A stretch of DNA of 64,000 bases, from the NCBI GenBank assembly GCA_963851265.1, contig CAWKNZ010000002.1:1504001-1568000 (forward strand), written 5' to 3'. Each line of letters begins with the position of its first letter. Position 1 is the stretch's first letter. Source of the DNA: an uncultured Gemmatimonadales bacterium (GTDB lineage: Bacteria; Gemmatimonadota; Gemmatimonadetes; Gemmatimonadales; Gemmatimonadaceae). Under the pieces are notes generated by a model that saw only the letters and a program-made list of their open reading frames with translations, was not told the origin of the DNA and made no database searches. The position numbers were made by a program, and so were the translations under genes. Positions 616-64,000 of the stretch are shown here, one piece after another.

Positions 616-1542
616 ATGCCGACCGCGCCGCCACCGATCGCCCCGCCGCACCCGCCAGCCGACACCGACGACCGCCGCGATCCGACTGTGTCGGATTCGG
701 GCGAACACGCGTCGTCGTCGCAGACTCCGGCCGTGGGCACGCGCCTGTCCGCGGCCGAGATCCACGACAACGTGGTGGTCGCGGCCGACGAGGAAATGCG
801 GCGGTCGACGACGGAACTCGCGTTTTCGGCGTTCCAGGCCGGATTGATGATCGGCTTCAGCCTGCTCGCGGCGGCGTACCTGGCGTCGCTCGTCGGCCCG
901 GAGCACCGCGCCGCAGCCGCCGCAGCGGGCTACCCGCTCGGCTTCATCTTCGTCGTGCTCGCGCGCAACCAGCTGTTCACGGAAAACACGCTCGATCCGC
1001 TCCTCCCATTGCTGGAGCGCCGAGACCAGGAGACGCTCAACGGCGTCGTTCGCCTCTGGAGCATCGTCCTGCCCGGCAACCTGCTCGGCGCGCTCGCGTT
1101 CGCCCTGCTCGCGGCGCACACGCCGATGATCGACGGCCCGCTCCAGACGTCGCTGCACGACGTCGCCGAGCACGCGACCAGCGGCGGGTTCGGTATCGTA
1201 TTCTACCGCGCGATTTTCGGCGGGTGGCTGGTCGCGCTCATGGCGTGGCTGGTGGCCTCGACGTCGTTCACCGGCGCGCAGATCCTGTTCGTGTGGCTCA
1301 CGACGGCGCCGATCGCCGCGTTCGGGTTCCGCCACGCCATCGCAGGCGCGGCCGAAGCCTTTTACCAGGCCGCCTCCGGCCGCTCGACGTGGGCCGAGAT
1401 GTTAGGCGCGTTTCTCGTGCCGGCCATCCTCGGCAACATCGTCGGCGGCGGCGTGCTCGTCGCGTTGCTGAACCACGGACAGGTGTTCTCGCGGCTCGCG
1501 CGCCGCATGCGACGCAGGGAAGGCGACGCGAAGCGGACCTAG
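616..1542 (+). CDS. Formate/nitrite transporter (FNT) family channel, YfdC-like
   Basis: Multiple hydrophobic helices; motifs GYPLGFIFVVLARNQLFTENT, GNLLGA and GNIVGG; ATG at 616 preferred over the ORF-track start at 265. Confidence 0.85.
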   Translation: MPTAPPPIAPPHPPADTDDRRDPTVSDSGEHASSSQTPAVGTRLSAAEIHDNVVVAADEEMRRSTTELAFSAFQAGLMIGFSLLAAAYLASLVGPEHRAAAAAAGYPLGFIFVVLARNQLFTENTLDPLLPLLERRDQETLNGVVRLWSIVLPGNLLGALAFALLAAHTPMIDGPLQTSLHDVAEHATSGGFGIVFYRAIFGGWLVALMAWLVASTSFTGAQILFVWLTTAPIAAFGFRHAIAGAAEAFYQAASGRSTWAEMLGAFLVPAILGNIVGGGVLVALLNHGQVFSRLARRMRRREGDAKRT

Positions 1543-1834
1543 AGCGCCGAACGCGCCCTTTCGCGCCGAGGGTCACGCGTCGCGCGCGGCCCGCAGCCGG
1601 GCGAGTGCCGCGTCGACGGACCGCGGCAGTGCCGGCGCGTCCCCGCACGGTGCTACGCCCACTGCCGTCGTGAACGAGCATAGCGAACGCGAACCGGGCG
1701 GTCCAACTGAGTCCGCGATTCGCTCGCCCATCGTCACCGGCGTGTGTCGGTCGGCGCCGCTGTCGTCTGCGTCGTGCGCTCAACGACGCTCGAATGCAGA
1801 CTCTCTCCCAGCGTTCCTCGATCGACGTGAGGTT

Positions 1835-1972
1835 CTAGCGCCGGGAGGCTTGGCCGACGACCCACAGCCGCCCGCGTTCGGCATCGTATGCGAGCCGGCT
1901 CGTGACCGCGAATCCGTCGAGCGGCTCGTCGCACCCCAGATCCCAATTCCGCGACCCGCGTCGCGTATACAC
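1835..1972 (-). CDS. Possible 45-aa small protein or gene remnant
   Basis: GTG at 1972, 16 nt downstream of the mutase stop: (M)YTRRGSRNWDLGCDEPLDGFAVTSRLAYDAERGRLWVVGQASRR; composition is unlike the Arg/Ala/Pro-rich shadow ORFs. Confidence 0.3.
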   Translation of the reverse strand: MYTRRGSRNWDLGCDEPLDGFAVTSRLAYDAERGRLWVVGQASRR

Positions 1973-1988
1973 CGGCGCGGTCGCCGCG

Positions 1989-3626
1989 TCAGGCGCTCGG
2001 CCGGTAGCGCCCCCACGCGGCGGCGAGTGTGTCCGAGATCTCGCCCACCGACGCGCGGGCACGCACCGCGTCGACGACCAGCGGCATCAAGGGCGCGCGG
2101 GCCGCACCCGGAACCGCGTACGGCGGCGCGGCGGCGGCGAGGGCGCCCAACGTGCGCTCGACGGCGACGGCGTCGCGCCGACGGCGGACCGACGCGAGCG
2201 CGTCGACCTGCGCGCGTTCGAGCGCACTGAAGTCGGGAGCAGGGATGATCGGCGGCTCCTGCGCGTCCGCGAACTTGTTGACGCCGACGACGACCGTCTC
2301 GCCGGCCTCGACGCGGAGCTGGTGTTCGTACGCGCTCCGCGCGATCTCCTCCTGAAAGAAGCCGCGCGCGATCGCCTCCGCCGCTCCGCCCATCGCGTCC
2401 ACGCGCTCGAGCAACTCGCGCGCGCGCCGTTCCAACTCGTCGGTGAGCGACTCCACGTAATAGCTTCCCGCCAGCGGGTCAACCGTCTGGGCGGTGCCGC
2501 TCTCGTATCCGAGGATCTGCTGCGTGCGCAGCGCGAGCGTTGCCGCCTCGGCGGTCGGCAGCGCGAGCGCCTCGTCGTAACCGTTGGTGTGGAGCGACTG
2601 CGTGCCGCCCAACACGGCGGCGAGCGCCTGCACCGTCACCCGGACCACGTTGTTGAGCGGTTGCTGCGCCTGCAGCGTGACGCCGCCGGTCTGCGTGTGG
2701 AAGCGCAGCCGCGCGCTCGCGTCGGACGCGCCGAACCGCTCGCGCATCAGGCGCGCGTAAAGGCGACGCGCGGCGCGGAACTTCGCGGCCTCCTCGAACA
2801 GGTCGTTGTGCGCGGCGAAGAAGAAGGACAGGCGCGGCGCGAAGGCGTCGACCGGGAGTCCGGCGTCCACCGCGCGCCGCACGTACTCCATCGCGTTGGC
2901 GAACGTGAACGCGAGCTCCTGCACGGCCGTCGCGCCCGCCTCGCGGATGTGGTACCCGGAGATCGAGATCGGATTCCACAACGGCACCTCGGCCGCGCAG
3001 AACCGGAACGTCTCGGCCACGAGGTTGAGCGACGGCTCGGGCGGGAAGACGTAGGTGCCGCGCGCCGCGTACTCCTTGAGGATGTCGTTCTGCGTCGTGC
3101 CCGACAGCTTGTCGCGCGCGATCCCCCGCTCCTCTGCCACCACGACGTACATCGCGAGCAGGACCGACGCGGTGGCGTTGATCGTCATCGAGGTCGAGAC
3201 GCGGTCGAGCGGCAGGCCCGCCAGCAGCGCGTGCATGTCCTCGACGGTGTCGATCGCGACCCCCACCCGCCCGACCTCGCCTAACGCGCGCGGCGAGTCC
3301 GAATCGATGCCCATCTGCGTGGGGAGGTCGAACGCCGTCGAGAGTCCGGTCTGTCCGGCATCGAGGAGCAGCTTGAACCGCGCGTTCGTGTCGGCCGCGG
3401 TGCCGAAGCCGGCGTACTGGCGCATCGTCCACAGCCGGCCCCGGTACATCGAGGCCTGCACGCCGCGCGTGAACGGGAACGCGCCCGGGTCGCCGAGGTC
3501 GACCCGGTAATCGATGTGCGCCCCGCCCTCGCCCGCGTCGGCGGGTCGGTACACGGGCGCGACCGGGATGTCGGACGGCGAGCGCCGCTCGTCGCCCGAC
3601 GCGGCCGGCCTAACAGGAGCGGCCAC
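1989..3626 (-). CDS. Methylmalonyl-CoA mutase family, catalytic (substrate-binding) subunit without a B12-binding domain
   Basis: [60 protein letters not shown] and DPLAGSY motifs; no DxHxxG domain. Confidence 0.95.
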
Positions 3627-3635
3627 GATCCCGCC

Positions 3636-4748
<1,113 letters not shown>

Positions 4749-4770
4749 GGGACTGGGCCTCGGCAGGGGT

Positions 4771-7633: not shown

Positions 7634-8197
7634 GTGTCCGACCCGCGTCCCCGGTCCGAACTGCTCGACCGCGTCCTGTCCGCGTCGGCCGCCCTCGTCG
7701 CCGCGTCGGCGCTCGCCGTCTCCGTGTACCAGGCGAGGATCATGCGCGAACAGCAGGTGATGAGCGCGTGGCCGTACGTCGTTCAGGGCAACACGGGCGT
7801 CGACCCCTATGCTCGCATCGTCCAGAACGTCGGACTCGGCCCGGCGCTCGTGCGAAGTTTCATCGTGGAAGTCGACGGCCGCCCGGTCCACTACTGGGGC
7901 GAGCTGCGCGAGGCGGTCGAGCACGGCTCCAGGCCGGCACCCATCGCGACGCGCAGCACGAGTTCTACGCTTCGCCGGGGACTGGTACTGCTACCCGGCA
8001 CGCCGAGCGAGGTGCTGCACGTGGAGGGTGCCGACGCGGCGGCGCGCATGCGCGCCGTGCTCACCGACGAGCGCGTTCGGATGCGCGTGTGCTACTGCTC
8101 CCTGTACGAGGACTGCTGGACGTCCGACACGCGCGAGTACGAGCCCGTCCGCGTGGCCGCGTGCCCGTCCGACGCGACGCGCGAGTTCTACCGTTAG
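7634..8197 (+). CDS. Hypothetical membrane-anchored protein with C-terminal CYCS..CW..C motif
   Basis: N-terminal TM segment (SASAALVAASALAVSVYQ), NVGLGPA and CYCSLYEDCW; fills the gap between comEC and miaB. Confidence 0.7.
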   Translation: MSDPRPRSELLDRVLSASAALVAASALAVSVYQARIMREQQVMSAWPYVVQGNTGVDPYARIVQNVGLGPALVRSFIVEVDGRPVHYWGELREAVEHGSRPAPIATRSTSSTLRRGLVLLPGTPSEVLHVEGADAAARMRAVLTDERVRMRVCYCSLYEDCWTSDTREYEPVRVAACPSDATREFYR

Positions 8198-9546
8198 GCG
8201 AACGCGGCCATCGGCAGCGCCGCGCGACGCGGCTCCGCGTCGCGCACCACGCTCCCGGTGAACGTCGACCCTGTCGTTCCCGTCAGCTCCACCGTCACGT
8301 AGTCCCCGATCGCGGCGTGGTCCGACGGCAGCATCACCGTCTTGAAGTCCCGGGTCCGCGCTTGCAGCAGCCCGCCGCGCCGCGCTTCCTTCTCGACGAG
8401 CACCTCGTGCCGCGTGCCCAACAGCCGGAGATTGCGCTCTCGCGCCCCGCCGCGCACCGTCGCGATCAGCCGCTCGAGTCGCGCGCTGGCGACGTCGTCG
8501 GGTACGAAGGTTGACGCGTCCATGCGCGTCGCCGGCGTGCCGTCGCGCGGGGAGAACTTGAACGTGTACGCGTCCTCGAATCCCAGTTCCTCAACGAGCG
8601 ACAGCGTCTCGGCAAAGTCCTCCTCGGTTTCGCCCGGGAAGCCGACGATCACGTCCGTCGTGAGATTGACGCGCGGGATGGCCGCGCGCAGGCGCGCCAC
8701 GCAGTCGCGGTATCCCTCGCGCGTGTAGCGGCGCAGCATGCGCTTCAGCACCCGCGTCGACCCGCTCTGCATCGGCAGGTGGACGTGCTCGCACAGCTGC
8801 CGTACCTCGGCCATCGCCGCGAGGACGCGGTCGGTGAAGTCGTTGGGATGCGGGCTCGTGAAGCGAATGCGGCGCACGCCCTCGACCCCGCCCACGGCCC
8901 GGAGCAGGTCGGCAAAATCGTGCGTCCCGTCGTGGTACGAGTTCACCGTCTGGCCGAGCAGCACGACCTCGCCGATGCCGTCGCGGACGACCTGCTCCGT
9001 CTCGCGCACCACGTCGGCGAGCTTGCGGCTCCGCTCCGACCCGCGCGTGTACGGCACGATGCAGTACGTACATCGGTAGTCGCACCCGCGCTGCACCGGA
9101 ATCCACGCCTTCACGCCGTCGAACCGCCGCGGCGTGAAGTCCTCGTAGTGCTCCTCGAGGTCGAAGCTCGTCGCGGTCACGCGCTCGCCCGCGCGGGCGC
9201 TCTCGAGCATGAGCGGGAGCGCGCGGTAGCCGTCCGGCCCGACGACGAGCGACACGTGCCGCGCCTTCTCGAGCAGCGTCGGCCCGAGACGCTGCGCCAT
9301 GCACCCGGCGACGCCTAACACGCTCCCCGGCTTCATGTGCCGCTTGAGCTCGCCCAGGCGCCCCACCACACGCTGCTCCGCGTGGTCGCGGATCGCGCAC
9401 GTGTTCACGAGAATCACGTCTGCGCCGTCGGGCGCGTCGACCGCGTCGTAGCCGTTCGCGGCGAGGCTGCCGTACATGAGCTCCGAATCGCTCACGTTCA
9501 TCTGGCAGCCGTAGGTTTCGATGTAGACGGTCGGACGGGACATCAC
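8194..9546 (-). CDS. miaB: tRNA-2-methylthio-N6-dimethylallyladenosine synthase
   Basis: TYGCQMNVSDSE, NTCAIR, radical SAM CDYRCTYC, IVGFPGET, C-terminal TRAM domain. Confidence 0.95.
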   Translation of the reverse strand: MMSRPTVYIETYGCQMNVSDSELMYGSLAANGYDAVDAPDGADVILVNTCAIRDHAEQRVVGRLGELKRHMKPGSVLGVAGCMAQRLGPTLLEKARHVSLVVGPDGYRALPLMLESARAGERVTATSFDLEEHYEDFTPRRFDGVKAWIPVQRGCDYRCTYCIVPYTRGSERSRKLADVVRETEQVVRDGIGEVVLLGQTVNSYHDGTHDFADLLRAVGGVEGVRRIRFTSPHPNDFTDRVLAAMAEVRQLCEHVHLPMQSGSTRVLKRMLRRYTREGYRDCVARLRAAIPRVNLTTDVIVGFPGETEEDFAETLSLVEELGFEDAYTFKFSPRDGTPATRMDASTFVPDDVASARLERLIATVRGGARERNLRLLGTRHEVLVEKEARRGGLLQARTRDFKTVMLPSDHAAIGDYVTVELTGTTGSTFTGSVVRDAEPRRAALPMAAFA

Positions 9547-15056: not shown

Positions 15057-16202
15057 TCACGACGCGGCGCCGACGTAGCGGCGCGGCACGCGCATCGCGA
15101 GCCCAGTCAGCAACTCGTACGGCGACAGCTCCGCACGCGCGGCCACGCCGGCCACGGTCAGCACGCCGCCGGCGGAGGTGCCGATGAGCGTGGCCACGTC
15201 GCCGATCGCGCACGGGATGTCAGTGACGTCGAGCATCGTCATGTCCATGGTCACGAGGCCGGCGACGCGGGCGAGCCGGCCGTTGAGCAACACCTCACCC
15301 CGGTTGGACAGGGCGCGGCGATAACCGTCCGCGTACCCCGCCGCGACGGTCGCGATCCGCCGCGCGTGCTCGGCACGCGACGTCGCGCCATAGCTGACGC
15401 CCTCCCCGGCCGGGAGCTCGCGCAGATCGACGACGCGCGCGCGCAGATGCGCGACGGGCGCGGGCTCGAGCAGATCGACGGCGCGACGCGCCGCGGTCGA
15501 AACGCCGTACACGAAGATTCCGGGCCGAACGAGGTCCCACGGCGAGGGCGCGACGGATTCCACCGCCGGCCCGTTCTCCGCATGCAGTAGTCGCGGTCGG
15601 GCCGGGAGTCGCGCGATCGCGCTCAGGAAGCGCGAGGTCTGCTCGTCGCGCGTGCCGTCCGCCCGGTCCGCGGAGTGGAAATGCGTGTACGCGCCCTCCG
15701 GGGGATGCGCCGCGATCGCGGCGATGAGGTCGTCGTCGAGCGCGTACCACGGCACGCCCGCGCGCGACATCCCGGTATCGATCCCGAGGTGCCACGGCGC
15801 GTCCAGCGCCGCGGCGGCCCACGCGCGGACGTCGCCCGCACGGTGGAGCGTCGGCGTCATGCCTAACGCATGCGCGTGCGCGAACTCGCACACGAGCAGC
15901 GGAGTCGTCACCAGCAGCCGAGCGGAGATCCGCGCGGCCCGCAACGCCGCGCCCTCGGCCACGCTCGCGACGCCGAATCCCCAGGGATCACCGGCCGCGC
16001 CGAGCGCGCGCGCGACCGCGACCGCGCCCAGGCCGTAGCCGTCGGCCTTGATCATCGGCACGAGCGGCACGCGCGCGCGCGCGCGCAGCGACCGCGCGTT
16101 CGCGACGAGGGCGTCGAGATCGACGTCGAGCCACGCCCGCGCCGTCGACGCATCGTCGAACCCGGCGCCCGAGCTCACGCGTCCGATAGATTCTGCGGCC
16201 AT
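15057..16202 (-). CDS. alr: Alanine racemase
   Basis: PMIKADGYGLGA (PLP Lys), IDTGMSRAG, THF, VRPGI, GYADG, GLVTMD and YELLT motifs; ATG at 16202. Confidence 0.92.
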   Translation of the reverse strand: MAAESIGRVSSGAGFDDASTARAWLDVDLDALVANARSLRARARVPLVPMIKADGYGLGAVAVARALGAAGDPWGFGVASVAEGAALRAARISARLLVTTPLLVCEFAHAHALGMTPTLHRAGDVRAWAAAALDAPWHLGIDTGMSRAGVPWYALDDDLIAAIAAHPPEGAYTHFHSADRADGTRDEQTSRFLSAIARLPARPRLLHAENGPAVESVAPSPWDLVRPGIFVYGVSTAARRAVDLLEPAPVAHLRARVVDLRELPAGEGVSYGATSRAEHARRIATVAAGYADGYRRALSNRGEVLLNGRLARVAGLVTMDMTMLDVTDIPCAIGDVATLIGTSAGGVLTVAGVAARAELSPYELLTGLAMRVPRRYVGAAS

Positions 16203-16250
16203 GGGCGCGCAACGTACCAACCGCTGAAGAGTTCGGGCAAGAACGAAGGC

Positions 16251-17033
16251 ATGCAACACAAGGCCACGCTTGCGGATACGCTCGCGCTGATGCGCGACCT
16301 GCGCGCGCGCTGCGAGTGGGACCGCGCGCAAACGCACAGCTCGCTGCGACCGTACCTGATCGAGGAAGCACACGAGGTCGACGACGCGATCCGCGAGGGC
16401 GACGACGCCGCCCTGCGCGAGGAGCTCGGCGACCTGCTGCTTCAGGTCGTCTTCCACGCCGTCGTCGCCGAGGAGCGAGGGGCGTTCGACCTCGGCGACG
16501 TCGCGCAGTCGCTCGTCACGAAGATGCGCGACCGGCACCCGCACCTGTACCCGACCGACGGCGCCGACGGCCCGACCGAGCGCCCGAGCTGGGAGGGGAT
16601 GAAGGCCCGCGCGCGCAAGGGCGGCATCGACCGCGGGCTGCCGGCCGCCCTCCCCGCCCTCCACCGCGCGCATCGGCTGCAGGACCGCGCCGCGGGCGTG
16701 GGCTTCGACTGGCCTAACGCGGACGGGCCGGCCGACAAGGTCGCCGAGGAACTCGGCGAGGTGCGCCAGGAGCTCGCGGCGGGCGGCGGAGCGGGCGGGC
16801 GCGACCACGGCGCGGTCGAAGCCGAACTCGGCGACCTGCTGTTCGCCGTCGTCAACCTGTGTCGCAAGAGCGGCGTGCACGCCTCGCTCGCGCTCGACCG
16901 CGCGAACGCCAAGTTCACGAGCCGGTTCAACGCCGTCGAGCGCCTCGCGGCCGAACGCGGAATCGACGTGGCCGACGCCGGGATCGAGGTCCTCGACGGG
17001 CTGTGGGACGAGGTGAAGGCCGCGGAGCGCTGA
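16251..17033 (+). CDS. mazG: Nucleoside triphosphate pyrophosphohydrolase MazG
   Basis: CEWDRAQTHSSLRPYLIEEAHEV, EELGDLLLQVVFH, GFDW and ELGDLLFAVVN; two MazG repeats. Confidence 0.93.
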   Translation: MQHKATLADTLALMRDLRARCEWDRAQTHSSLRPYLIEEAHEVDDAIREGDDAALREELGDLLLQVVFHAVVAEERGAFDLGDVAQSLVTKMRDRHPHLYPTDGADGPTERPSWEGMKARARKGGIDRGLPAALPALHRAHRLQDRAAGVGFDWPNADGPADKVAEELGEVRQELAAGGGAGGRDHGAVEAELGDLLFAVVNLCRKSGVHASLALDRANAKFTSRFNAVERLAAERGIDVADAGIEVLDGLWDEVKAAER

Positions 17034-42771: not shown

Positions 42772-42793
42772 GGGACGTGAAATGCCTAACTGT

Positions 42794-49413: not shown

Positions 49414-51080
49414 GAGACGGACGGCACGTCGGCGCCGGATCGGCCGAGCGCCTCCAGGTTGGCGCGCGCGGTCGGGTGGTCGGGTCGCAAGTTACACGCG
49501 CGCTGCCACGCGTGGCGCGCGGCGTCCCGGTCGCCGGCCCGCAGCGCCAGCGTTCCGAGGCGCGCCCAGGCCGTCGAGGAACCGTCGGGTGCGAGGCGCG
49601 TCGCTGCCGCGTACGCGTTCCGTGCGCGGTCGAACTGCCCGGCGCGGTAGAGCAGGTCGCCCAGGAGCCGTTGCGCGGGCGCGAGATCGGGCCGTTCGGC
49701 GAGTGCCTGCATCACGCCGCCCAACGGCTCGCCCGCGCCGCGCCCCTCAACGCGCGCGCCCGCGCCACCCGCGCGCAGCGCCGCGTCGTTGGCGAGAAGC
49801 GCCGCCGCGCGTGGGTGCGCGGCCACACCCTCCCGGGCGAGCGCGGACGCGCCGTCGATGTCTCGCACGCCAAGCGCCGCGAGCACGGCGTAGTGGTACC
49901 ACACCGCGGCCGGCTGCGGCCAGTGCGCGCGCGCTCGGTCCAGGAGGTGCCGTGCGGCGACCCAGTCGCGTCGGTCGAGCGCGAGTGCACCGCGTGCGGT
50001 GAGGTGTCGCGGGTCGTCACCGAGCCCGAGTCTCGCGGCGCGCGCGTATGCCTCGTGGGCGAGTTCGAACTGTCCAAGTCGGTGAAGTGTGACCCCGAAC
50101 GCATGCACCGTCGCGGCGCTCGCACCCGGAGTTGCCGCAGCTTCGCCGAGCACGGCCGCGGCCTCGTCGACACGCCCGGCCCGCAACGCCGCCGCGCCGA
50201 GATGCGCGCGGGCTGTCGCGTCCGTGGGCCGCAGTTCGAGCACGCGCCGCAACTCTCGGAGCGCCTCGTCGAGCAGGCCCGCCCGCGCGAACGCGATGCC
50301 AAGGTTGAGGTGCTCGTCGGCCCGCGCCCCCGCAAGTCGCAGCGGCGCGACGCTGGCGTCCGTCGCGACGCGCCGCGCACGCCCGTCGCGGACGAGCGCA
50401 TAGATCGCGCGTGAGACGGCGTACGTCGAGAGCCCGCTCGCGTCGGCCACGCTCTGCACGTCGCGCTGGCCATCGAGCAGCGCGGTGACGCGCCCGATCT
50501 CGTCGGCGGCTACGTCAACGGCGGGGGACGCGGACCAACGCTCGCCACGTGGAACCGTCGCGAACACGCTGCCCACGCCGGGCACCTCGGTCGCGATCAG
50601 CACGCCCTCGTCGGCGCGGCGCGCGGATTCCAAGAGGAGCGATCCGACATCGAGTTGGACGGCCAGTTCGGCGGCAAACGGCGGTACGTCCGAATCGAAG
50701 CTGAACGTACCTCGCGTCCAGCCCAGCAACTCGTACGCGGCCTCGGCAGACTGCGTACGCAAGAGCGCGAGCAGGGCCGCGTGCGGGACGGCACCGCGAC
50801 GGACGAGCAGCAGCCCCAAGGGGCTGTCGGGTTCGGCGGCCTGGGCGACGAGCGCGGCACGCAATTCCGAATCGGGGAGTAGTCCGGCGCGGACGAGCGC
50901 GCCGCCGAGCGGATCGCGACGGTGGGCGAGCGCCGCGTGCGCGACCGCGCCGTCGACGAAGCTGAGCGTGCCGAGCTCGCCGTCGCGCGCGACGCTGAGC
51001 CGGCCCGTCCGCCGGCCTAACGCGAGCAGTTGCACGACGTCGGGGAGCGCCGCCTCGGCGAGATTCCCGCGGAGCGCCAT
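49410..51080 (-). CDS. DUF4388 (PATAN-like) domain plus C-terminal TPR repeats
   Basis: MALRGNLAEAALPDVVQLL..GRRTGRL, W.RGTFSF and LLLESARRADE; HLNLGIAF TPR array. Confidence 0.8.
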   Translation of the reverse strand: MALRGNLAEAALPDVVQLLALGRRTGRLSVARDGELGTLSFVDGAVAHAALAHRRDPLGGALVRAGLLPDSELRAALVAQAAEPDSPLGLLLVRRGAVPHAALLALLRTQSAEAAYELLGWTRGTFSFDSDVPPFAAELAVQLDVGSLLLESARRADEGVLIATEVPGVGSVFATVPRGERWSASPAVDVAADEIGRVTALLDGQRDVQSVADASGLSTYAVSRAIYALVRDGRARRVATDASVAPLRLAGARADEHLNLGIAFARAGLLDEALRELRRVLELRPTDATARAHLGAAALRAGRVDEAAAVLGEAAATPGASAATVHAFGVTLHRLGQFELAHEAYARAARLGLGDDPRHLTARGALALDRRDWVAARHLLDRARAHWPQPAAVWYHYAVLAALGVRDIDGASALAREGVAAHPRAAALLANDAALRAGGAGARVEGRGAGEPLGGVMQALAERPDLAPAQRLLGDLLYRAGQFDRARNAYAAATRLAPDGSSTAWARLGTLALRAGDRDAARHAWQRACNLRPDHPTARANLEALGRSGADVPSVS

Positions 51081-52190: not shown

Positions 52191-54967
52191 CGCCCGGCTC
52201 GGGGTGGCGCGTTGCCCACCCGCGTGTTCGCGGCGGGTAGTCCGGCGTCCGACGCGTGCCGAGCGCCGTCCGCCGTCGCCCGACGACGGAGTCCCGCGCG
52301 GGCCCGCGCCGCGCCGGCCCCGACGGGCGCGACGCCGAGCGCGCGGCGCCACGCGTCGCGCGCGCCCGGAACGTCGCCGGACGCGGCAGCGCAGTCGCCG
52401 TACACCGCCAGCGCGAGCGGATGCTCGGCGTCGATCGCGAGCGCCTGCAATGCACTCGCCCGGGCGTCGTCGAGCCGGTCCGCGTCGACGTACGCGGCCG
52501 CGATCGTGGCGAGCGCGTCAACGTCACCGGCATCCTGGTCGACGACGCGCGCGAGGTGGGCGCGGGCTGCGGGCAGCTCGCCCTTCGCGATCGCCACCTC
52601 GGCGCGGGCGCGCCAGAGGTCGGGGAGGTCTGGCGTGCGTTCGGCGAGCGTTTGCAGGATCGCGTCGGCGGCGTCCGCCTGGCCGGCGCGCTCGAGCGCC
52701 CGCGCCAGCGCGATGGCCGGACGCGGCAAGGCAGGGACGGCGCGCGACGCCTCGGCCCATGCCTCGGCCGCGGCGTCCCAGGCGCCTAACGCTTCCCATG
52801 CGCACGCGACGTCGGCCCAGTACGCCGCGGGATCGCCGGCCGCGATGTGCTCGCGCCGCGCGTCCGCGCAGCGGGACAGCGCGGCCGCGGAGTCGTCGAC
52901 GGCGCCGCGGTCCGCCGCGGCACGCGCCAGGATCGCGGCGAAGCCCGGAACCGCCGGCCACCGACGACCCGCCGCCTGCGCGCGCTCGCACACCTCGCCC
53001 AGGCGCCCCAGACGGTACAGCGCGCGTAGCACGTGGACTTCCGGCTCCGACTCGGCCGGCGCTACCGCCGCCGCGGCGCGATAGCGCTCGAGCGCGAGCG
53101 CGACGTGCCCGCTCCCCGCGAGCGCGTGGCCCGCGCGCAACAACCCGTCGACACGCGGCGCGCCGCGCGCCATCGCCGCGTCGGCCGCCGCGAGGGCTCG
53201 TTCGTACTCGCCCGACGCGAGCCGCGCGTCGACGTGCGCGTAATCGCGCGCGAATTCCATACGCGTCGCGTCCTGGTCACGCGCGGTCTCGCGCGAGGAC
53301 TCGGCGACGGCGACGCGTACGGCCGAGCCGTCACTCGGCAGGAGCAGCGGCGGATCGACGACGAGCAGGAGACGCGGCGTGGGGAAGCGGACGACGGGGC
53401 TCAGCGCGGCCGCCCGCGCCAGTTCCGCACGCGCCGCGGCCGCGTCGCCGCACGCGCCGGCAGCGAATGCGAGCCCGTACCGGGCCGCCGCGTCGTGCGG
53501 AACGAGTGCGCACGCGCGTTCGTACGCGGCGCGAGCTGCCGCGTGTTCACCGACGAGCGCCAGGGCGCGACCGTGCGCCGCGTGAGCCCCGGGGTCGGTC
53601 GGGGCGAGGCGGACGCCCGCCGCGCCCGCGCTCACCGCCGGTGCGGCGGCACCGGCGTCCGCCAGCAGCAACGCGAGATCGGCGGCGACTGCGGCGCGCA
53701 CGCCGTGCTCGAGCCCGCGGCCCTCGGCCGCCGCGTCGAGCAGGGTCGCGCGCGCGGTCGGGAAGTCCCCCCGGCGCCACGCGACGAGCGCACGGACGAT
53801 CGTCGCCGCGCACCGCGCGAGCGGCGGTGCGCCGCTGTGCGCGACCCCGCGCGCGAGCGTATCGGCTGCGGTCGCGTCGCCGACGAGAAGGCGAGCAGCC
53901 GCGAGCGCGACGGTTTCAGCATCGGCCGGGACGCCCGCGCGCCGCGCGGATTCATACGCGTCGGTGAGCACCCGCTCGGCCGCGACGATGTCGCCACGCG
54001 CGAGATGCACGATGCCCGTCGCGTGCGCGATCGTGGCGCGTTCCCGGTCGCTCGGCGCGGTTCCGGTTTCCGCGGCCCGCGCCACCGCGTACCCGTCCAA
54101 CGTCGCGAGCGCCTCGTCGTAATAGCCCTTGTGCCGGAGCGCGGTCGCGACCGCGATGGCGTGCGCCGCTGAATCCGGCGCGGCGACGGCGTCGTGATCC
54201 ATCGGTCGCTCCGCCGCCGAAGCCACGCTGGAACTCGCGTCGGAGCCGACCAACACCACGCCCGGGTCCAAGCGGGTCAGTACAGGATCCAGCGCCGACG
54301 CGCGGGACCGACTCGCCGCCGCTGCTTCGTCGGCCCCGAGTTCGCCGAGCACGAAGCTTCGCAGCAACTCGGCCTCGGCGTCGTCGGGTGTGACGGCGCG
54401 GACGCGTTCGACGGCCGCGAGCGCGCCCGCGGCATCGCCACGCTGGTACGCGGCACGCGCCTCGAGGAGGTCGAGCATCGCGAACAGCGCGACGTCGCCG
54501 GCGCGTGCGTGAGCGCCCGCACCGGCCCGCGCCCGCGCGACCGCGGTGAGCGCCTCTTCCGGCTGTCCGGTGTCGAGTGCCCAACGCGCGCGCTCGACCG
54601 ACGGCGCGATACCGCCGGCGTCCGCGGCGTCCCACCGCGCGAGCGCACCCGCGGCGGCGGCGAGCTCTCCGCGTGCGGCGTGGTGACGGACGAGTGCGCG
54701 CCACGCGTCCACGTCGGTCGCGTCGGCGCGCACCCGGGCGCGCAGGATCGCGACCTTGGCCTCCGCGGCTTCCGCGGGCAGCGCGCGCAAGTTCCGCCGC
54801 GCGACCGTCATCCCGGCATCGAGCGCGACCGCGCGGCCGAACGCGCGTTCCGCCTCGGCGCTGCATCCCCCACGCTGGAGGACGACGCCGAGGTTGTTCT
54901 GCGCCACGGCGTCGGCTGCGTCGGTGAGCGCGACGAGGCGCGACGCGGCGGCTTCGCCGATGCGCAC
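52187..54967 (-). CDS. Large Ala-rich TPR-repeat protein
   Basis: AQNNLGVVL, HKGYYDEAL and many degenerate TPR units. Confidence 0.75.
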   Translation of the reverse strand: MRIGEAAASRLVALTDAADAVAQNNLGVVLQRGGCSAEAERAFGRAVALDAGMTVARRNLRALPAEAAEAKVAILRARVRADATDVDAWRALVRHHAARGELAAAAGALARWDAADAGGIAPSVERARWALDTGQPEEALTAVARARAGAGAHARAGDVALFAMLDLLEARAAYQRGDAAGALAAVERVRAVTPDDAEAELLRSFVLGELGADEAAAASRSRASALDPVLTRLDPGVVLVGSDASSSVASAAERPMDHDAVAAPDSAAHAIAVATALRHKGYYDEALATLDGYAVARAAETGTAPSDRERATIAHATGIVHLARGDIVAAERVLTDAYESARRAGVPADAETVALAAARLLVGDATAADTLARGVAHSGAPPLARCAATIVRALVAWRRGDFPTARATLLDAAAEGRGLEHGVRAAVAADLALLLADAGAAAPAVSAGAAGVRLAPTDPGAHAAHGRALALVGEHAAARAAYERACALVPHDAAARYGLAFAAGACGDAAAARAELARAAALSPVVRFPTPRLLLVVDPPLLLPSDGSAVRVAVAESSRETARDQDATRMEFARDYAHVDARLASGEYERALAAADAAMARGAPRVDGLLRAGHALAGSGHVALALERYRAAAAVAPAESEPEVHVLRALYRLGRLGEVCERAQAAGRRWPAVPGFAAILARAAADRGAVDDSAAALSRCADARREHIAAGDPAAYWADVACAWEALGAWDAAAEAWAEASRAVPALPRPAIALARALERAGQADAADAILQTLAERTPDLPDLWRARAEVAIAKGELPAARAHLARVVDQDAGDVDALATIAAAYVDADRLDDARASALQALAIDAEHPLALAVYGDCAAASGDVPGARDAWRRALGVAPVGAGAARARAGLRRRATADGARHASDAGLPAANTRVGNAPPRAGR

Positions 54968-55661: not shown

Positions 55662-57331
55662 GAACGAGGGGGCGTGTCGTCGAAGGCGGGAATCGCGGCG
55701 CGCGCCGCGACTGCGGGGACGTCCAGTACCAAGACGACTTCCCCGCCTTCAAGTATCGTCGCGCCCGCGGCGATCCGCGGAGCGCCGCGCGGCGTCACGA
55801 CGGGCTTGAGTACGCAGTCTCGGGCGCCGATCAACTCGTCCACGCGGACGGCGAACGGCGGCGCATCCGGACCGGGCGAAAGCAGCACGACCTCGGCGCC
55901 GTGCTCGGCAACATGCCCGCGCGCCGAGCAGCCCAGCACCGCGCCGAGCGATGGCGAGCCCTCGTCGCCGGCGCCGCCGTCGCGCGTACCGCGGACGTGC
56001 GCGAGCGGGATCGCGTACGCCGCCGCACCGGCACGGACGACGAGCGCGGGTACGACCGCCCACGAAAGGGGCATGTGCAGCGTGAAGGACGTACCCACCC
56101 CCGCTGTGGTGTGCAGGGTGAGCGCACCGCCTAACGCCCGCACGCGCGCGAGCGCGGCGTCGACGCCGACGCCGCGCCCTGACACTCGGCCGACCTCGCG
56201 CGCGGTCGACAGGCCCGGCATCGCGAGACACGCGAGGAGCGTGGCGTCGTCGACCGTTCCGGCGTCGCCGCCGACGTCGAGGGACGGAGGTAGTCCGCGG
56301 GCGCGCGCGCGTGCGAGCACCGCGGCGCGATCGACGCCGCGGCCGTCATCCTCGACGCGGACGACGAGCGAGTTGCCGTCGCGCGTCACGCGGACGGCGA
56401 CGCGCCCGTCCGCCAGCTTGCCACGCCGTGCGCGCTCGTCGGGCGGCTCGATGCCGTGGTCGACGGCGTTGCGCAGGAGGTGCGTGAGCGGTTCGGCGAG
56501 CGCGTCGATCACGGCGCGGTCGGCCACGACGTCGCCGCCGCTGGTCTCGAGCGTGACACGCTTCCCGGTGGCGCGCGCCGCCTGGCGGACGATTCGAGGC
56601 AGTTCCGCGAGCAGTTCGGCGAGGGCGACCAGGCGGGACGTTCGCACTTCCTCGACGAGTGCGCCCGACACGCGCCCCAGATCGGCAACCGCGCGAGCGA
56701 GCGGCGCGTCGCCCGTGTGCGCCGCCGCGCGTGCGAGGCGGTCGCGCACGTTCGTCAGCTCGCCCGCGAGTTCGAGTAGTCGGTCGAGCGTTTCGGCGTC
56801 GACTCGCACCGTGCGCGTCACGGCGGGCGCTGCCGCGCCGGCGGGGTCGGAGGGGTCGGCCGCCGACTCGACGCGGTTCGTGGGCGACGATCCCGTACCG
56901 GCAGACCTGGCCGCGGCCGCCGCCGACACTCGGTCGAGGCATGCGCGAACGTGTGGCGCCACCTCGGGGCTTTCGGTGGATGCACCGGGCGCGAGTGACG
57001 CCTCGACCGCGTCGTCGAGCGCGTCGATGGCCGCTGGCAGGTGCGGGAAGGCCGCGATGCGCCCGGCGCGCGGGGCGTCGCGCAGGCGGCCGAGCGCGTC
57101 TTCGAGCGCGTGGGCGATGGACTCGACCGCCGAGAAGCCCATCGCGGCGGACATGCCCTTGATCGTGTGCACGCTCCGGAACAGCACGTCGATCTCGTCG
57201 GCCGCCGCATCAGCGTGCATGAGGCGGACGGCGTCGCGAGCGGCGCGGAGCTGCTCGCCGGCCTCACGCGCGAAGAGCGCGGTGTACTTCGCGCTCGACA
57301 GGCCGGGCGCGAGGCCCGCGCCGTCGCTCAG
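55598..57331 (-). CDS. cheA: CheA-like histidine kinase (Hpt, dimerisation, HATPase, short CheW-like domain; no P2); start uncertain
   Basis: LFRSVHTIKGMS, TVRVDAETLDRLL, HLLRNAVDHGIE, DDGRG and SGRGVG; in-frame CTG at 57331 overlaps the cheY stop. Confidence 0.85.
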   Translation of the reverse strand: MSDGAGLAPGLSSAKYTALFAREAGEQLRAARDAVRLMHADAAADEIDVLFRSVHTIKGMSAAMGFSAVESIAHALEDALGRLRDAPRAGRIAAFPHLPAAIDALDDAVEASLAPGASTESPEVAPHVRACLDRVSAAAAARSAGTGSSPTNRVESAADPSDPAGAAAPAVTRTVRVDAETLDRLLELAGELTNVRDRLARAAAHTGDAPLARAVADLGRVSGALVEEVRTSRLVALAELLAELPRIVRQAARATGKRVTLETSGGDVVADRAVIDALAEPLTHLLRNAVDHGIEPPDERARRGKLADGRVAVRVTRDGNSLVVRVEDDGRGVDRAAVLARARARGLPPSLDVGGDAGTVDDATLLACLAMPGLSTAREVGRVSGRGVGVDAALARVRALGGALTLHTTAGVGTSFTLHMPLSWAVVPALVVRAGAAAYAIPLAHVRGTRDGGAGDEGSPSLGAVLGCSARGHVAEHGAEVVLLSPGPDAPPFAVRVDELIGARDCVLKPVVTPRGAPRIAAGATILEGGEVVLVLDVPAVAARAAIPAFDDTPPRSCPSHPPLRPAAASAPTTRAR

Positions 57332-58175: not shown

Positions 58176-58193
58176 CCGGCGGACCGCGCCGGC

Positions 58194-59769: not shown

Positions 59770-60350
59770 GCGAGCCCCGCCGGCGTGCGGCCTAACGGCA
59801 TTTCGGCGCGCGAGGTGCGGCGGTCGTCGGCTCCCCACAGGACGCGGCAGAGCATGACCACGCCCAGCGTGACCGCGACGTCCGCGACGTTGAAGGTCGG
59901 CCACCGGTGCTGGCCGACCCCGACGTCGAGGAAGTCGACGACGCCGTCTTCCGAGATCACGCGCGTGAGCGCGTTTCCGAGCGCGCCCGCGGCGAGCAAC
60001 GCGAGCGCGACCACGCGGGAGTTCGCACGGTCCGGCGTCGCGCGGTACAACCGCCAGACGACGCGCAGCACGACGACCGTGAGCACCAGGAAAATCGCGC
60101 GCGACCACGGTCCGAGGTGGAGCCCGAACGCCGCGCCCGGGTTGTAGACGAGCGTCAGCCGCAGCCACTCGCCGGCGACCGCGTGCGGGAAGCCTGCCGG
60201 CGAGAGGGCGTAGGCGGCGATCGCCTTCGTCAGCAGGTCCACGAGCACGACGAGCACGACGACGGGCCAGAAGACCACGCCGTTCGTGTTCGCCGCGTCC
60301 GCGCGCGCCGACGCCGGACCGGCCGGCAGGTCAGCCGCCCTTCTTGCCAT
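59766..60350 (-). CDS. lspA: Lipoprotein signal peptidase II, upstream copy (GNALTR variant)
   Basis: DLLTK, NPGAAFG, GNALTR, VVDFLD and FNVADV; ATG at 60350 preceded by GAGG. Confidence 0.85.
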   Translation of the reverse strand: MARRAADLPAGPASARADAANTNGVVFWPVVVLVVLVDLLTKAIAAYALSPAGFPHAVAGEWLRLTLVYNPGAAFGLHLGPWSRAIFLVLTVVVLRVVWRLYRATPDRANSRVVALALLAAGALGNALTRVISEDGVVDFLDVGVGQHRWPTFNVADVAVTLGVVMLCRVLWGADDRRTSRAEMPLGRTPAGLA

Positions 60351-60789: not shown

Positions 60790-60794
60790 GCTGT

Positions 60795-63700
60795 TCAGTC
60801 CTCGCTGGGGGTCTTGCGGAGACTCACGTACACGGCCGCGCCGTCGACGTCCAGAGTCCGCGAAACCGCGGAAGTTAGCGGGTCCGAGCTGACGTCGTCG
60901 CCGCCGACGTCGAGCGCGGTGGCGAGTACCTCGCCCGCCACGTACGTGGCGTGTCCGCGAACGGCGGCCTCGACTTCCGCGTTCCCCGAAACCCGAAGCG
61001 CGATCCGGTCGCTGACCTCGAGGCCGATCTCCTTCCGCAACCGTTGCACGCGACTGACCACCTCGCGCGCGACGCCTTCGGCGCGCAGCTCGGGTGACAC
61101 GGTAACGTCGAGCGCCGCGACGTACCCGCCCTCCTCCTGCACGGCGTACGCACCCGCCGTCCGTCGGAGGATCGTGAGGTCGCCGGGTTCGAGCGGGTGA
61201 TCGACGCCGTCGACGGCGATCGAAACCGACTCGCCGCGCTCGAACGCGTGGAGGGTGTCCGGCCCGAGCGCGGCGACCGCCTGTGCCGCGAGCGGCGTCG
61301 ACTTGCCGAAGCGCTTCCCGAGCGCGCGAAAGTTGGCCTTCGCTTCGAGCGTCACCAGCGCGTCGCCGCTCGTCGCCCACTGGACGGCCTTCACGTTCAG
61401 TTCGGCGGCCAGCAGCGGGGCGAGCGCGTGCAGCGCCTCGACCGCACGCGATTCGTGCAGCGGTGCTACCGCGACCAGCGCGCCGAGCGGCTGACGGACA
61501 CCGATGCCGACCTCCGTCCGCGCCGCGCGGCCGAGGTTCACGATTCGGCGAATCGCGTCCATCGCCACGGCGAGCGCGTGCGCGGCGCCCGCATCGTGAG
61601 CCGTCGCGGGCGGGTCGGGACGGACGTAATCGGCGAGGTGGACGCTCGCGCCGGTATCCAGGCCGCCGGTGAGTGCGCGGTGCAACCAGTCGGCGACGAA
61701 CGGCGCGAACGGCGCGAGGAGGCGCGCGGTCACGAGCAGCACTTCGTGCAGCGTCGCGAAGGCGGCGCGCTGGTCGTCGGTCGTGACGTCGTAGAAGCGG
61801 GCCCGCGAGAGGCGCAGGTACCACTTGCTGACGTCCGCGTCGAAGAATTCGACGACGCGGCGCGCCGCCGCCGTCGGGTCGAGCGCGTCGAGCAGCGCGT
61901 CGGCCTCGCGCTCGACGTCGGCGAGGCGGCCGAGCACCCAGCGGTCGAGCGCGGGGCGGTCGGCCGCGCGCGGGTCGGCTTCGGATGGCGTCCAGCCAAA
62001 GTTCGCGTACAGCGCGAAGAACGCGTAAACGTTCTTGAGCGTGATCAGGAAATTGCCCGCGGTCTGACGGATTTGTGCCTCGTCGAACGCGAGCGGCTTC
62101 CAGACCTCGCTGGAGCTGACCAGGAACAGCCGCGCCGCATCTGCCCCGTGCCGCTCCATCACGGCCCACGGGTCGACCGTGTTGCCGCGACTCTTGGACA
62201 TCTTCTGCCCGTCGGCGTCGTTGACGAGGCCGTTGACGATGACCGCGCGGTACGGCGCGGGCGCCGTGCCGGCGTTGTTCGGCAGCGCGTCGCCGAGCCC
62301 GGTCGCGATCGCGAGCAGCGAGTAGAACCACCCGCGCGTCTGGTCCTGCCCTTCGGCGATGAAGTCGGCCGGAAACTGTCGCGCGACGACCTCTTGGTTC
62401 TCGAACGGGTAGTGCCACTGCGCGAACGGCATCGAACCCGAGTCGAACCACGCGTCGACCACCTGCGACACGCGGCGCATGGTCCCGCGGCCGCTCGGGG
62501 CCGGCCACGTGTACTCGTCGATGAACGGCTTGTGTGGATCGAACTCGCCGGGGAGTGCGCGGCCGACCTTCTCGGCCAACTCGGCGAACGAACCGACTAC
62601 CTCCACCTCGTTCGGGTCGGCGTCGTTGACCCAGATCGGGAGCGGCGTGCCCCAGTACCGGTCCCGCGAGACCGCCCAATCGATGTTGCCTTCCAGCCAC
62701 TGGCCGAAGCGACCGGTGCCGACGCTCTCGGGGTGCCAGTCGACCTCGGCGTTGCGCGCGAGCATCGCGTCCTTGTACGCGGTCGTGCGGACGAACCACG
62801 ACGAGCGGGCGTAGTACAGGAGCGGCGTGCCGCAGCGCCAGCAGTGCGGGTAGCTGTGCAGGAAAGCCGACGCCTTCCAGAGCACGTCGCGGCGGCGCAA
62901 TTCCTCGATGATCGCCGCGTCGGCGCGCTTGACGAAGGTGCCGCCGACCACCGGGATGCCCGCGTCGAACTCGCCGCGGGCGTTCACCGGCTGCACGAAA
63001 GCGAGCGCGTGCCGCTGCCCCGCCCCGTAGTCGTCGGCGCCGAACGCGGGCGCCATGTGCACCACGCCCGAGCCGTCGTCGGCCGAGACGAACTCCTCGG
63101 CGACGATGACCTCGTGCGCGCCGGCGCCGGGCGCGCCGTCCGCCGGGTAGGCGACCCAGTCGAGCGGCCGGCGGTACCGCCGGCCGGCGAGCTCGCTCCC
63201 GCGCAGCCGGGCGACGACGTCCCAGCGGTCCGCCCAGTCGGCGCCTAACACGCCCGCGGCACGCGCCTCGGCGAGCAGGATCGTCCACCCGTCGTCGGCC
63301 GCCGCGTCGCGCCCGCGCTTCCGCAGCTCCACGTACTCGAGCGCCGGGTTGACGGCGAGCGCCGTGTTGGAAACGAGCGTCCAGGGCGTGGTCGTCCAGA
63401 CCAGGATGCGCCTGCGGCCAGCCGGCGCAGCGCCGTCCGCCGGGACGAGGTCGAGCGCGACGTACACGCTCGGGTCCTCGACGTCCTTGTAGCCCTGGGC
63501 GACCTCGTGACTCGAAAGCGTCGTCTCGCAGCGCGGGCAGTACGGCAGGACCTTGTGCCCCTGCAGGAGCAGGCCGCGCCGGTGCAGCGTCGCGAGCGCC
63601 CACCAGACGCTCTCGACGTAGTCGTTGGTGTACGTGACGTACGGGCGGTCGTAGTCGAGCCAGTACGCCATGCGGGCGGACAGCTGCTCCCACTCGCCGC

Positions 63701-64000
63701 GGTAGCGGAACACGCTCTCGCGGCAGAGTCGGTTGAACTCCGCCACGCCGACGCGCTCGATGTCCTGCTTGCCGCTGATGCCTAACGCCTTCTCGATCTC
63801 GATCTCGACGGGGAGGCCGTGGGTGTCCCACCCGGCCTTGCGGGGCACGTCGTACCCGCGCATCGCGCGGTGGCGGCAGACGAGGTCCTTGACCGTGCGG
63901 GCGAACACGTGGTGGATGCCGGGGCGCCCATTGGCGGTCGGCGGACCCTCGTAGAAGACGAACGGCGGCCCGCCCGCCCGGGACGCCCGCGCCCGCTCGA
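60795..64000 (-). CDS. ileS: Isoleucine--tRNA ligase, type 2 (5' end outside window)
   Basis: FYEGPPTANGRPGIHH, WTTTPWTL, EGQDQTRGWF and KMSKS; type-2 C-terminus EGVAREVVSRVQRLRK..DRI without a zinc finger. Confidence 0.97.
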   Translation of the reverse strand, partial: ERARASRAGGPPFVFYEGPPTANGRPGIHHVFARTVKDLVCRHRAMRGYDVPRKAGWDTHGLPVEIEIEKALGISGKQDIERVGVAEFNRLCRESVFRYRGEWEQLSARMAYWLDYDRPYVTYTNDYVESVWWALATLHRRGLLLQGHKVLPYCPRCETTLSSHEVAQGYKDVEDPSVYVALDLVPADGAAPAGRRRILVWTTTPWTLVSNTALAVNPALEYVELRKRGRDAAADDGWTILLAEARAAGVLGADWADRWDVVARLRGSELAGRRYRRPLDWVAYPADGAPGAGAHEVIVAEEFVSADDGSGVVHMAPAFGADDYGAGQRHALAFVQPVNARGEFDAGIPVVGGTFVKRADAAIIEELRRRDVLWKASAFLHSYPHCWRCGTPLLYYARSSWFVRTTAYKDAMLARNAEVDWHPESVGTGRFGQWLEGNIDWAVSRDRYWGTPLPIWVNDADPNEVEVVGSFAELAEKVGRALPGEFDPHKPFIDEYTWPAPSGRGTMRRVSQVVDAWFDSGSMPFAQWHYPFENQEVVARQFPADFIAEGQDQTRGWFYSLLAIATGLGDALPNNAGTAPAPYRAVIVNGLVNDADGQKMSKSRGNTVDPWAVMERHGADAARLFLVSSSEVWKPLAFDEAQIRQTAGNFLITLKNVYAFFALYANFGWTPSEADPRAADRPALDRWVLGRLADVEREADALLDALDPTAAARRVVEFFDADVSKWYLRLSRARFYDVTTDDQRAAFATLHEVLLVTARLLAPFAPFVADWLHRALTGGLDTGASVHLADYVRPDPPATAHDAGAAHALAVAMDAIRRIVNLGRAARTEVGIGVRQPLGALVAVAPLHESRAVEALHALAPLLAAELNVKAVQWATSGDALVTLEAKANFRALGKRFGKSTPLAAQAVAALGPDTLHAFERGESVSIAVDGVDHPLEPGDLTILRRTAGAYAVQEEGGYVAALDVTVSPELRAEGVAREVVSRVQRLRKEIGLEVSDRIALRVSGNAEVEAAVRGHATYVAGEVLATALDVGGDDVSSDPLTSAVSRTLDVDGAAVYVSLRKTPSED

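Follow-up and report, generated by a model that had tools for sequence, protein, structure and literature searches.

The subject of this analysis is a short DNA word, the heptamer GTTAGGC (complement GCCTAAC), which recurs through a 64,000-nucleotide stretch of genomic DNA from an uncultured Gemmatimonadales bacterium (the window; G000:C2:1504001-1568000, where G000 is the window's genome, an assembly of 4.60 Mb in 12 contigs with 73% G+C). As a sequence-only reading of the window had proposed, it is at the level of DNA that the word is maintained, in several reading frames and both orientations and in spite of codon bias. It is used here also in an 8-mer form, C plus the heptamer, (C)GTTAGGC; this 8-mer, CGTTAGGC, differs from its own reverse complement, ie it is non-palindromic. 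By elimination and by precedent, the explanation which we favour, with a probability of about 0.4, is that (C)GTTAGGC is a "self tag" in DNA uptake or transformation, comparable to the DNA uptake sequence (DUS) of Neisseriaceae, the uptake signal sequence (USS) of Pasteurellaceae and the highly iterated palindrome (HIP1) of cyanobacteria.

The 26 exact copies reported for the window were all recovered, 5 of them on the + strand and 21 on the - strand. Dinucleotide shuffles of the window gave a mean of 1.53 copies and at most 5, and none of 100 shuffles reached 26. Synonymous codons were also shuffled within each gene, a procedure which keeps all proteins, dipeptides and per-gene codon counts and which also retains the TTA codons contributed by the word itself. 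Under this null the called genes of the window are expected to hold 1.05 +/- 1.0 copies (maximum 4 in 40 shuffles) and hold 21; the genes of the whole of G000 are expected to hold 69.3 +/- 8.3 and hold 1283, an 18-fold enrichment, so the earlier claim of enrichment stands when codons and dipeptides are preserved. The whole genome contains 1762 copies in 4.6 Mb (885 on the + strand, 877 on the -), where Markov models of orders 1-3 predict 96-160. A maximum-order Markov ranking of 7-mers missed the word because its sub-words are likewise enriched, and lower orders and codon-aware nulls were taken instead. The average density is one copy per 2.6 kb, and all 12 contigs carry the word at 0.33-0.55 per kb. 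With 24.5 copies expected per 64 kb the window is average for its genome, and the enrichment, which might have been confined to it, is genome-wide and genus-wide.

The 21:5 orientation in the window arises because 45 of its 49 called genes lie on the - strand. Across G000, 10.2% of X-Leu-Gly sites (677/6627) have been converted to the word in the sense frame and 16.1% of X-Pro-Asn sites (147/912) in the antisense frame, with lower rates of conversion at [SGRC]-Leu-Thr (3.9%) and Val-Arg-[LPHQR] (1.4%). The frames are filled in proportion to opportunity, and the coding-strand bias therefore comes entirely from coding opportunity. Skew between replichores was judged from the share of copies on the + strand over 31 regions of 150 kb, corrected for coding opportunity; no regional heterogeneity was found among the 31 (chi2 30.8, df 31, p 0.48), and by our own estimate a 60:40 skew would be detectable by this test. 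The GC skew of G000 is too weak and noisy for placing the origin. That orientation follows the genes had been suggested earlier, and after correction there is indeed no strand preference relative to genes or chromosome; the word is therefore read on duplex DNA regardless of the direction of transcription or replication.

The signal is exact. TTAGGC is preceded by G in 1762 of its 1794 occurrences in G000, and 71% of all TTAG falls within the word. Spacers and gene edges hold 494 copies where 35 are expected (14-fold), and in the spacers all 21 one-letter neighbours of the heptamer occur at 0.2-1.9 times expectation, from which it follows that the signal is the exact heptamer. The preceding base is C in 79% of copies and T, the second choice, in 13%, the order being C > T > A > G.

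Within the 1655 long open reading frames (ORFs) of G000, 677 of 861 TTA codons (79%) stand in G-TTA-GGC, so that TTA is not common outside the word, and the same 677 make up 75% of the 902 copies in these ORFs. In the context xCG-Leu-GGC, TTA, the rarest leucine codon, accounts for 29.4% of leucine codons compared with 0.1% in control contexts, and G-TTA-GG[A/G/T] occurs 14 times compared with 677 for G-TTA-GGC. The word also forms the ends of 199 of 3539 genes, providing 117 of 406 TAA stops and 82 of 705 TAG stops. At tolerant sites residues have been swapped to fit it (Asp to Ser, Ala or Thr; Ala or Asp to Gly), and one conserved Ala-Leu-Gly site reads GCG-TTA-GGC in 13 word-rich genomes of six genera and in no word-poor genome. 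The least codon-typical tenth of G000 genes has 4.0% of its Leu-Gly sites converted, compared with approximately 10% in typical genes, which suggests that resident DNA is the richer in copies. A prophage was sought for a comparison of phage with host, and the HK97 capsid family was found in none of five rich genomes; megaplasmids do carry the word, as given below.

The 8-mer was counted in 201 genomes of the Gemmatimonadaceae, a genus being called rich when its count was more than twice that of the reversed-word control; the 201 include three unpublished genomes (G011, G047 and G093), on which no conclusion depends. The counts are bimodal and consistent within genera. Twenty-four of 68 genera are rich (as read from the count table), with up to 7821 copies in 6.1 Mb, and the remaining genera have 2-60 copies, far below the control. 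A syntenic block of FBPase, ComEC, MiaB and mutase genes was taken from 80 genomes, 79 of which entered a concatenated tree (FastTree, 2093 columns). On this tree the rich state requires 13 changes, of which at least 11 are forced by well-supported branches. The four orthologous genes of the block carry 106 copies in 239 kb in rich genomes and 1 in 214 kb in poor ones. Amongst cultured organisms, Gemmatirosa kalamazoonensis KBS708 has 0.5-0.78 copies per kb in 150 kb sampled from two 1-Mb megaplasmids. A profile search of named genomes gave 70 loci longer than 8 kb, of which one was rich; the titles were all those of metagenome-assembled genomes (MAGs), with no cultured carrier among them. An 8.9-kb MAG contig titled Gemmatimonadaceae (L126) has 13 copies at 64.6% G+C, so extreme G+C is no condition for the word.

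The longest stretch of G000 that lacks the word spans 45 kb (G000:C1:182876-227962, loci L092-L094) and has a Poisson chance of approximately 5e-5. It holds gidA, parA, parB and mnmE together with ordinary housekeeping genes, and its 65 xxG-Leu-GGC sites include no TTA where 12.2 are expected, with TTG at background. The same region has the word at normal density in five other rich genomes, and exclusion around the origin was dropped as a reading of the gap for that reason. Import from outside the genus is not supported either, as GidA is 84-85% identical to that of genus mates; the region is syntenic with theirs at 75-82% nucleotide identity, equal to other regions. The 45 kb may have been imported from an unsampled word-poor relative. 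A second gap of 21 kb (G000:C8:248137-269544, L096) includes a ParA-type ATPase gene which adjoins that of a 630-residue protein with a weak match to DnaA_N, and may serve to maintain an integrated or secondary replicon.

Letter for letter, the word is the attC core of this order's integrons. In the word-poor genome G021 the 8-mer is the 3' core of classical attC sites (CTAAC ... CGTTAGGC), four of them in 9 kb with inner inverted boxes. The locus concerned (L221, G021:C95:1-9000) belongs to a cassette array of at least 24 kb, whose attC sites measure about 88 bp, hardly differ from one another and have conserved inner boxes (GCGCTTGAAGCTG / CAGCTTAAGCGC). Word-poor relatives have few copies of the 8-mer, 500-650 bp apart and on one strand. 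Integron integrase scores above the curated cut-off in 18 of 31 genomes of the order, regardless of the trait: many poor genomes have IntI (G005, G006, G007, G009, G010, G014, G019, G020, G024-G026, G028 and G029), and it is missing or degraded in the rich genomes G001, G008, G012 and G018. The IntI gene of G000 itself is split (G000:C6:3005-6044), profile positions 2-265 matching at 5244-6044 and 260-313 at 3005-3166, approximately 2 kb apart on the same strand. On the same contig two attC-like GCCTAACG...CGTTAGGC pairs lie at about 1.0-2.2 kb. Such pairs (GCCTAAC, 40-130 bp, GTTAGGC) are very rare in G000, with about six pairs within 100 bp among the 1762 copies, and genuine attC sites were observed in arrays only. 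The DtxR/IdeR iron box, which includes the heptamer, was considered as the identity of the word and rejected: the copies in the genome do not form part of an extended palindrome, and the base favoured ahead of them is C and not G.

Five families of DNA methyltransferase were searched for in three rich genomes (G000, G061 and G012) and two poor sisters (G045 and G114), and none of the five is specific to the rich genomes. PF01555 had no match in G000 or G061, PF02086 none in G000 or G012, and PF00145 none in the three rich genomes, although it is present in both poor ones. PF02384 (N6_Mtase) is represented in G000 by frameshifted pieces only. These broken genes, at G000:C7:771474-772495 and G000:C9:923-1858, are each spread over several frames and may be decayed restriction-modification systems or the result of indel errors in the assembly. 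There is one intact protein of about 1100 residues with an Eco57I-type adenine methyltransferase domain (NPPW motif; L087, G000:C7:582088-585523). With its orthologues (L088-L091) it is found in all five genomes, rich and poor, at 50-60% identity; the pairwise values, 59.9% for G000-G045, 57.9% for G061-G114 and about 50% for all others, agree with the species tree, and a segment-wise comparison found no segment common to the rich genomes.

If the word is a self tag, a sequence-specific reader would favour DNA carrying the exact heptamer, with the preceding base ranked C > T > A > G. Competent cells would prefer tagged DNA of their own kind in uptake or in recombination, by a mechanism such as that of DUS and USS, and alleles carrying the word would spread with each exchange. 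Such molecular drive would push the word into every place that the proteins tolerate, ie synonymous sites, stop codons, spacers and certain amino-acid positions that allow substitution, and there would presumably be a dedicated reader which lineages of the family have acquired or lost on many occasions. What the counts show is a drive at the level of DNA, symmetrical between the strands, exact, and present in some lineages only; the reader and the connection with uptake or transformation are inferred. The parts required for competence are available in G000 (ComEC, PilT paralogues, DprA, two secretins and a minor-pilin operon). The operon (L215, G000:C9:33278-36397) has four genes with prepilin-type N-termini, FimT/PilV/PilW/PilX-like, and its products are natural candidates for the DNA receptor, too divergent for profiling with a single sequence. 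One FimT-like minor pilin of G000 has matches in 26 of 73 genomes, rich and poor; it was not found even in G001, of the same genus, and is therefore too weak a query.

Several observations weigh against the self-tag explanation. The sequence-only reading had held an uptake role possible in view of the comEC gene of the window; the gene is there, but it is uninformative in either direction, as ComEC is found in 186 of the 201 family genomes, rich and poor alike. In favour of uptake, it had no match in the sampled genomes of three genera (g25, 2/2; g48, 5/5; g67, 4/4), all word-poor. None of its residues tracks the trait beyond what control proteins do. PilT (73/73 genomes), DprA (28/31) and secretin (5/5) are equally present in word-poor genomes, and the competence genes therefore explain nothing about who has the word. 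The distribution is unlike that of DUS, where a whole clade shares the word and sister groups have related dialects: one and the same word turns up in scattered lineages, which takes 11 or more gains or losses. In 400 kb from the sister genus of the window's genus there is not one copy, nor is any other word hyper-abundant, whereas the same word-ranking method puts GTTAGGC first in G000; a poor genome is therefore one with no system, not one with another dialect. Copies are not evenly spaced in G000, the intervals being exponential (median 1805 bp compared with 1797 expected, coefficient of variation 1.07). Inverted pairs within 45 bp number only 19, no more than chance, with few terminator-like hairpins. 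Neither close nor inverted pairs are in excess in G000, and no flanking AT-tracts were seen around the word. The identity with the integron attC/attI core is not something which uptake predicts. Lastly, a search of the literature library found nothing linking Gemmatimonadota or Gemmatirosa to uptake sequences, competence, transformation or a methylome.

Five rival explanations were weighed. The heptamer could be a site inside the cell, bound as a monomer by a nucleoid-associated, segregation or other chromosome-handling protein, with selection for many evenly available sites on every replicon. Its presence on every contig of G000 and on two Gemmatirosa megaplasmids agrees with this, the Poisson-like spacing fits sites that are each kept individually, and exact recognition and a trait that is on or off without dialects are likewise as expected. 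However, known site-specific signals of the nucleoid and of segregation have features which the word lacks, in that they are palindromic, few in number, confined to one region or skewed. Sister genera that are wholly without it imply that no essential architecture depends on it, and a 45-kb gap not conserved in five other rich genomes implies that there is no regional logic. We consider an intracellular site unlikely. Elhai's model for HIP1 offers a by-product of methylation-directed repair, in which the word is marked by methylation through a methyltransferase, and near-copies are corrected towards it by a mismatch nuclease that depends on the methyl group. Enzymes of the Eco57I/MmeI type typically have non-palindromic sites of 6-7 bp, and G000 has its one intact protein with an Eco57I domain; the second-choice preceding base, T, is the deamination product of C. 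Repair bias as it is known gives weak enrichment, not 18-fold, and the methyltransferases of the five genomes do not help the model, as no family is specific to the rich ones and the Eco57I-type protein occurs in all five and diverges as the species do. In favour of the model, HIP abundance in cyanobacteria is reported to accompany cognate orphan methyltransferases (PMC4390886). On balance the repair model is rather improbable for this family.

A link with integrons would make the word the R-box core (GTTRRRY / RYYYAAC, R and Y being purine and pyrimidine), copies being created or selected by an IntI-type recombinase or by cassette traffic. The letters are identical, the preceding C included, the 8-mer is the 3' core of attC sites in a word-poor genome, integrases are common in the order, and the chance that a 7-8-mer should coincide with one particular known signal is small. 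Yet IntI does not track the trait, the genomic word lacks the GTTRRRY degeneracy in spacers, and G000 has very few paired sites of the attC kind. A large number of working recombination sites within essential genes should, moreover, do harm. We regard this link as improbable. A Chi-like hotspot read by a helicase-nuclease of the RecBCD/AddAB type has been largely refuted. A short, exact, non-palindromic word over-represented in the resident genome is what it calls for, and an AddAB-like gene pair is present in G000, but none of the 31 regions shows strand skew. RecC was found in none of the three rich genomes and PDDEXK_1 nuclease domains in one of the three, G061 (96% complete) and G012 (92% complete) having neither; the word, furthermore, overrides codon usage far more than known Chi sites do. 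In favour of a Chi-like role, HIP1 has been suggested to act partly like Chi (10.1101/2024.09.10.611283). Selection of the TTA-GGC codon pair for decoding is refuted: the Leu-Gly frame predominates and a tRNA-Leu(UAA) gene exists in G000, but antisense X-Pro-Asn sites are filled as much or more, spacers are enriched, stop codons are used, and G-TTA-GGC almost never gives way to another glycine codon. A more speculative proposal, and a doubtful one, joins the integron core to uptake. A repeatedly gained and lost reader would take the universal integron core CGTTAGGC as a "take me up" tag, and the host chromosome would become tagged by molecular drive. The integrase's requirement would then fix the word from outside, which would explain why the same word appears in at least 11 lineages without dialects; attC-bearing cassettes in environmental DNA would be preferred uptake substrates in lineages with the reader, and natural transformation would be coupled to the integron cassette pool.

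The copies in the window are listed in Table 1, with gene names taken from the Pfam annotation of the 49 called genes, which agrees with most of the names given by the sequence-only reading. The genes include ComEC, miaB-like, alr, asnS, recG, ftsY, a dcw cluster spanning rsmH/ftsL/ftsI to ftsA/ftsZ, a che cluster, two lspA and ileS. The tally is 19 copies in the frame G-TTA-GGC, as had been counted, three as CCT-AAC, one or two as GTT-AGG, one forming a double stop and one at the ftsL-ftsI junction. The single GTT-AGG copy (16712), the stop-codon copy and the junction copy were all found as described. Four Pro-Asn copies had been claimed, of which three exist (one in ftsZ and two in ftsQ), and a mazG label proved wrong: no MazG domain was found in the 49 window proteins scanned, and the copy at 1401 lies in the formate/nitrite transporter gene.

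Table 1. Exact copies of the word in the window, with the strand on which GTTAGGC reads and the place of each copy.
Coordinates	Strand	Reading	Gene or location
1401..1407	+	sense G-TTA-GGC	formate/nitrite transporter gene (658-1539 +)
3279..3285	-	sense TTA-GGC	methylmalonyl-CoA mutase gene
3608..3614	-	TGTTAGGC; GTT-AGG if mutase starts at GTG 3626	33-bp gap from FBPase stop to mutase gene
8193..8199	+	both stops of convergent genes: CGT-TAG (+), GCC-TAA (-)	179-aa ORF (+); miaB-like gene (-)
9313..9319	-	sense TTA-GGC	miaB-like radical SAM gene
15861..15867	-	sense TTA-GGC	alanine racemase gene
16712..16718	-	sense GTT-AGG-C (Val-Arg)	N-terminal part of alanine racemase ORF
17762..17768	-	sense TTA-GGC	asnS-type class II tRNA synthetase gene
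21582..21588	-	sense TTA-GGC	recG
27551..27557	-	sense TTA-GGC	ftsZ
27875..27881	+	antisense, G-CCT-AAC (Pro-Asn)	ftsZ
29919..29925	-	sense TTA-GGC	ftsA
30261..30267	+	antisense, CCT-AAC	ftsQ
30999..31005	+	antisense, CCT-AAC	ftsQ
31703..31709	-	sense TTA-GGC	murC
33757..33763	-	sense TTA-GGC	murG
38820..38826	-	sense TTA-GGC	murF (assigned by its Mur ligase domains and its place in the gene order)
39638..39644	-	sense TTA-GGC	murE (assigned on the same grounds as murF)
41356..41362	-	sense TTA-GGC	ftsI
42784..42790	-	directly after near copy CGTTAGAC plus one A	ftsL-ftsI junction
51015..51021	-	sense TTA-GGC	DUF4388/TPR protein gene
52784..52790	-	sense TTA-GGC	926-aa TPR protein gene
56129..56135	-	sense TTA-GGC	cheA-type kinase gene
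59790..59796	-	sense TTA-GGC	signal peptidase II (lspA) paralogue
63243..63249	-	sense TTA-GGC	ileS (frame from ORF 60795-63908)
63780..63786	-	sense TTA-GGC	ileS

The convergent genes which share their stops at 8193-8199 overlap by four bases; the 179-residue ORF has no Pfam match and was found by tblastn in only three of 80 syntenic loci. The alanine racemase ORF (15060-17030) encodes 657 residues, with the racemase domains beginning only at residue 303; no Pfam family matches the 300 residues at its N-terminus, in whose coding sequence a single copy of the word lies. At 59197-60332 there is a tandem pair of signal peptidase II (lspA) paralogues.

To our knowledge, genome-wide self words have been described in three bacterial groups only, Neisseriaceae, Pasteurellaceae and cyanobacteria, and GTTAGGC would add a fourth, from a soil phylum that is abundant but has been studied little. 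The readers of the known words took decades to find or remain debated. Within a single family the trait switches at least 11 times, and the "off" genomes show no background at all, a feature which the other cases lack, and the reader should therefore be findable by plain phylogenetic profiling. The on and off lineages are also replicates provided by nature, from which the speed could be measured at which such a drive writes its word into a genome and erases it. Since the word is identical with the integron core, it may form a link between two major routes by which genes are exchanged. In practical terms the word is a lineage marker for binning, and since the cultured Gemmatirosa kalamazoonensis KBS708 carries it, it is likely to be required for genetic tools in Gemmatimonadota.

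The DUS of Neisseriaceae are 10-12 bp long and are read by the minor pilin ComP, the USS of Pasteurellaceae have a 9-bp core, and the two are known together as DUES. Like the word, they are short, exact and non-palindromic, occur about once per 0.8-2.6 kb equally on both strands, sit in coding frames for common peptides with some residues altered, are poorer in atypical genes, and belong to hosts in which the competence machinery is present. Recognition of DUS by the ComP receptor is described in PMC3630211 and PMC3868556. The word differs in being found in another phylum and in being a different and shorter sequence (7+1 bp) with no flanking AT-tracts seen, random instead of even spacing and few terminator pairs. 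It is, moreover, scattered (at least 11 changes) and invariant, with no dialect in the sister genus.

HIP1 (GCGATCGC) of cyanobacteria resembles the word in being hyper-abundant, in lying inside genes against codon use and in having been lost from some lineages. It is, however, an octamer palindrome with cognate methyltransferases and quasi-periodic spacing, whereas the word is asymmetric and exponentially spaced, and no methyltransferase tracks it. An over-representation of 15- to 300-fold is given for HIP1 (PMC5861425). Its function stayed obscure for decades, and a tie with natural transformation has now been made: it is reported to raise transformation efficiency (10.1101/2024.09.10.611283) and to correlate with type IV pilus genes (PMC13756078).

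The integron attC/attI core (GTTRRRY, inverse RYYYAAC), which is bound by IntI, has the same letters as the word, CGTTAGGC / GCCTAACG, and the attC sites in the order's own cassette arrays end in the exact 8-mer. Unlike attC, in which GTTRRRY pairs with RYYYAAC in an imperfect hairpin of 50-140 bp, the genomic copies are single, without hairpin pairing or R/Y degeneracy, stand in frame in housekeeping genes, and do not co-occur with IntI. Chi and the sequences that orient FtsK (the FtsK-orienting polar sequences, KOPS, and the architecture imparting sequences, AIMS) are also short, asymmetric and over-represented in the core genome, but they are skewed with replication and for the most part ride on common codons, whereas the word is unskewed and built on the rarest codons; in addition, RecBCD/AddAB was not found in two of three rich genomes. 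The statement of the sequence-only reading that GTTAGGC matches no described uptake, Chi, KOPS or HIP signal is thus upheld. The kind of signal is a known one, and what sets this case apart is the phylum, the word itself, its on/off distribution and its coincidence with attC.

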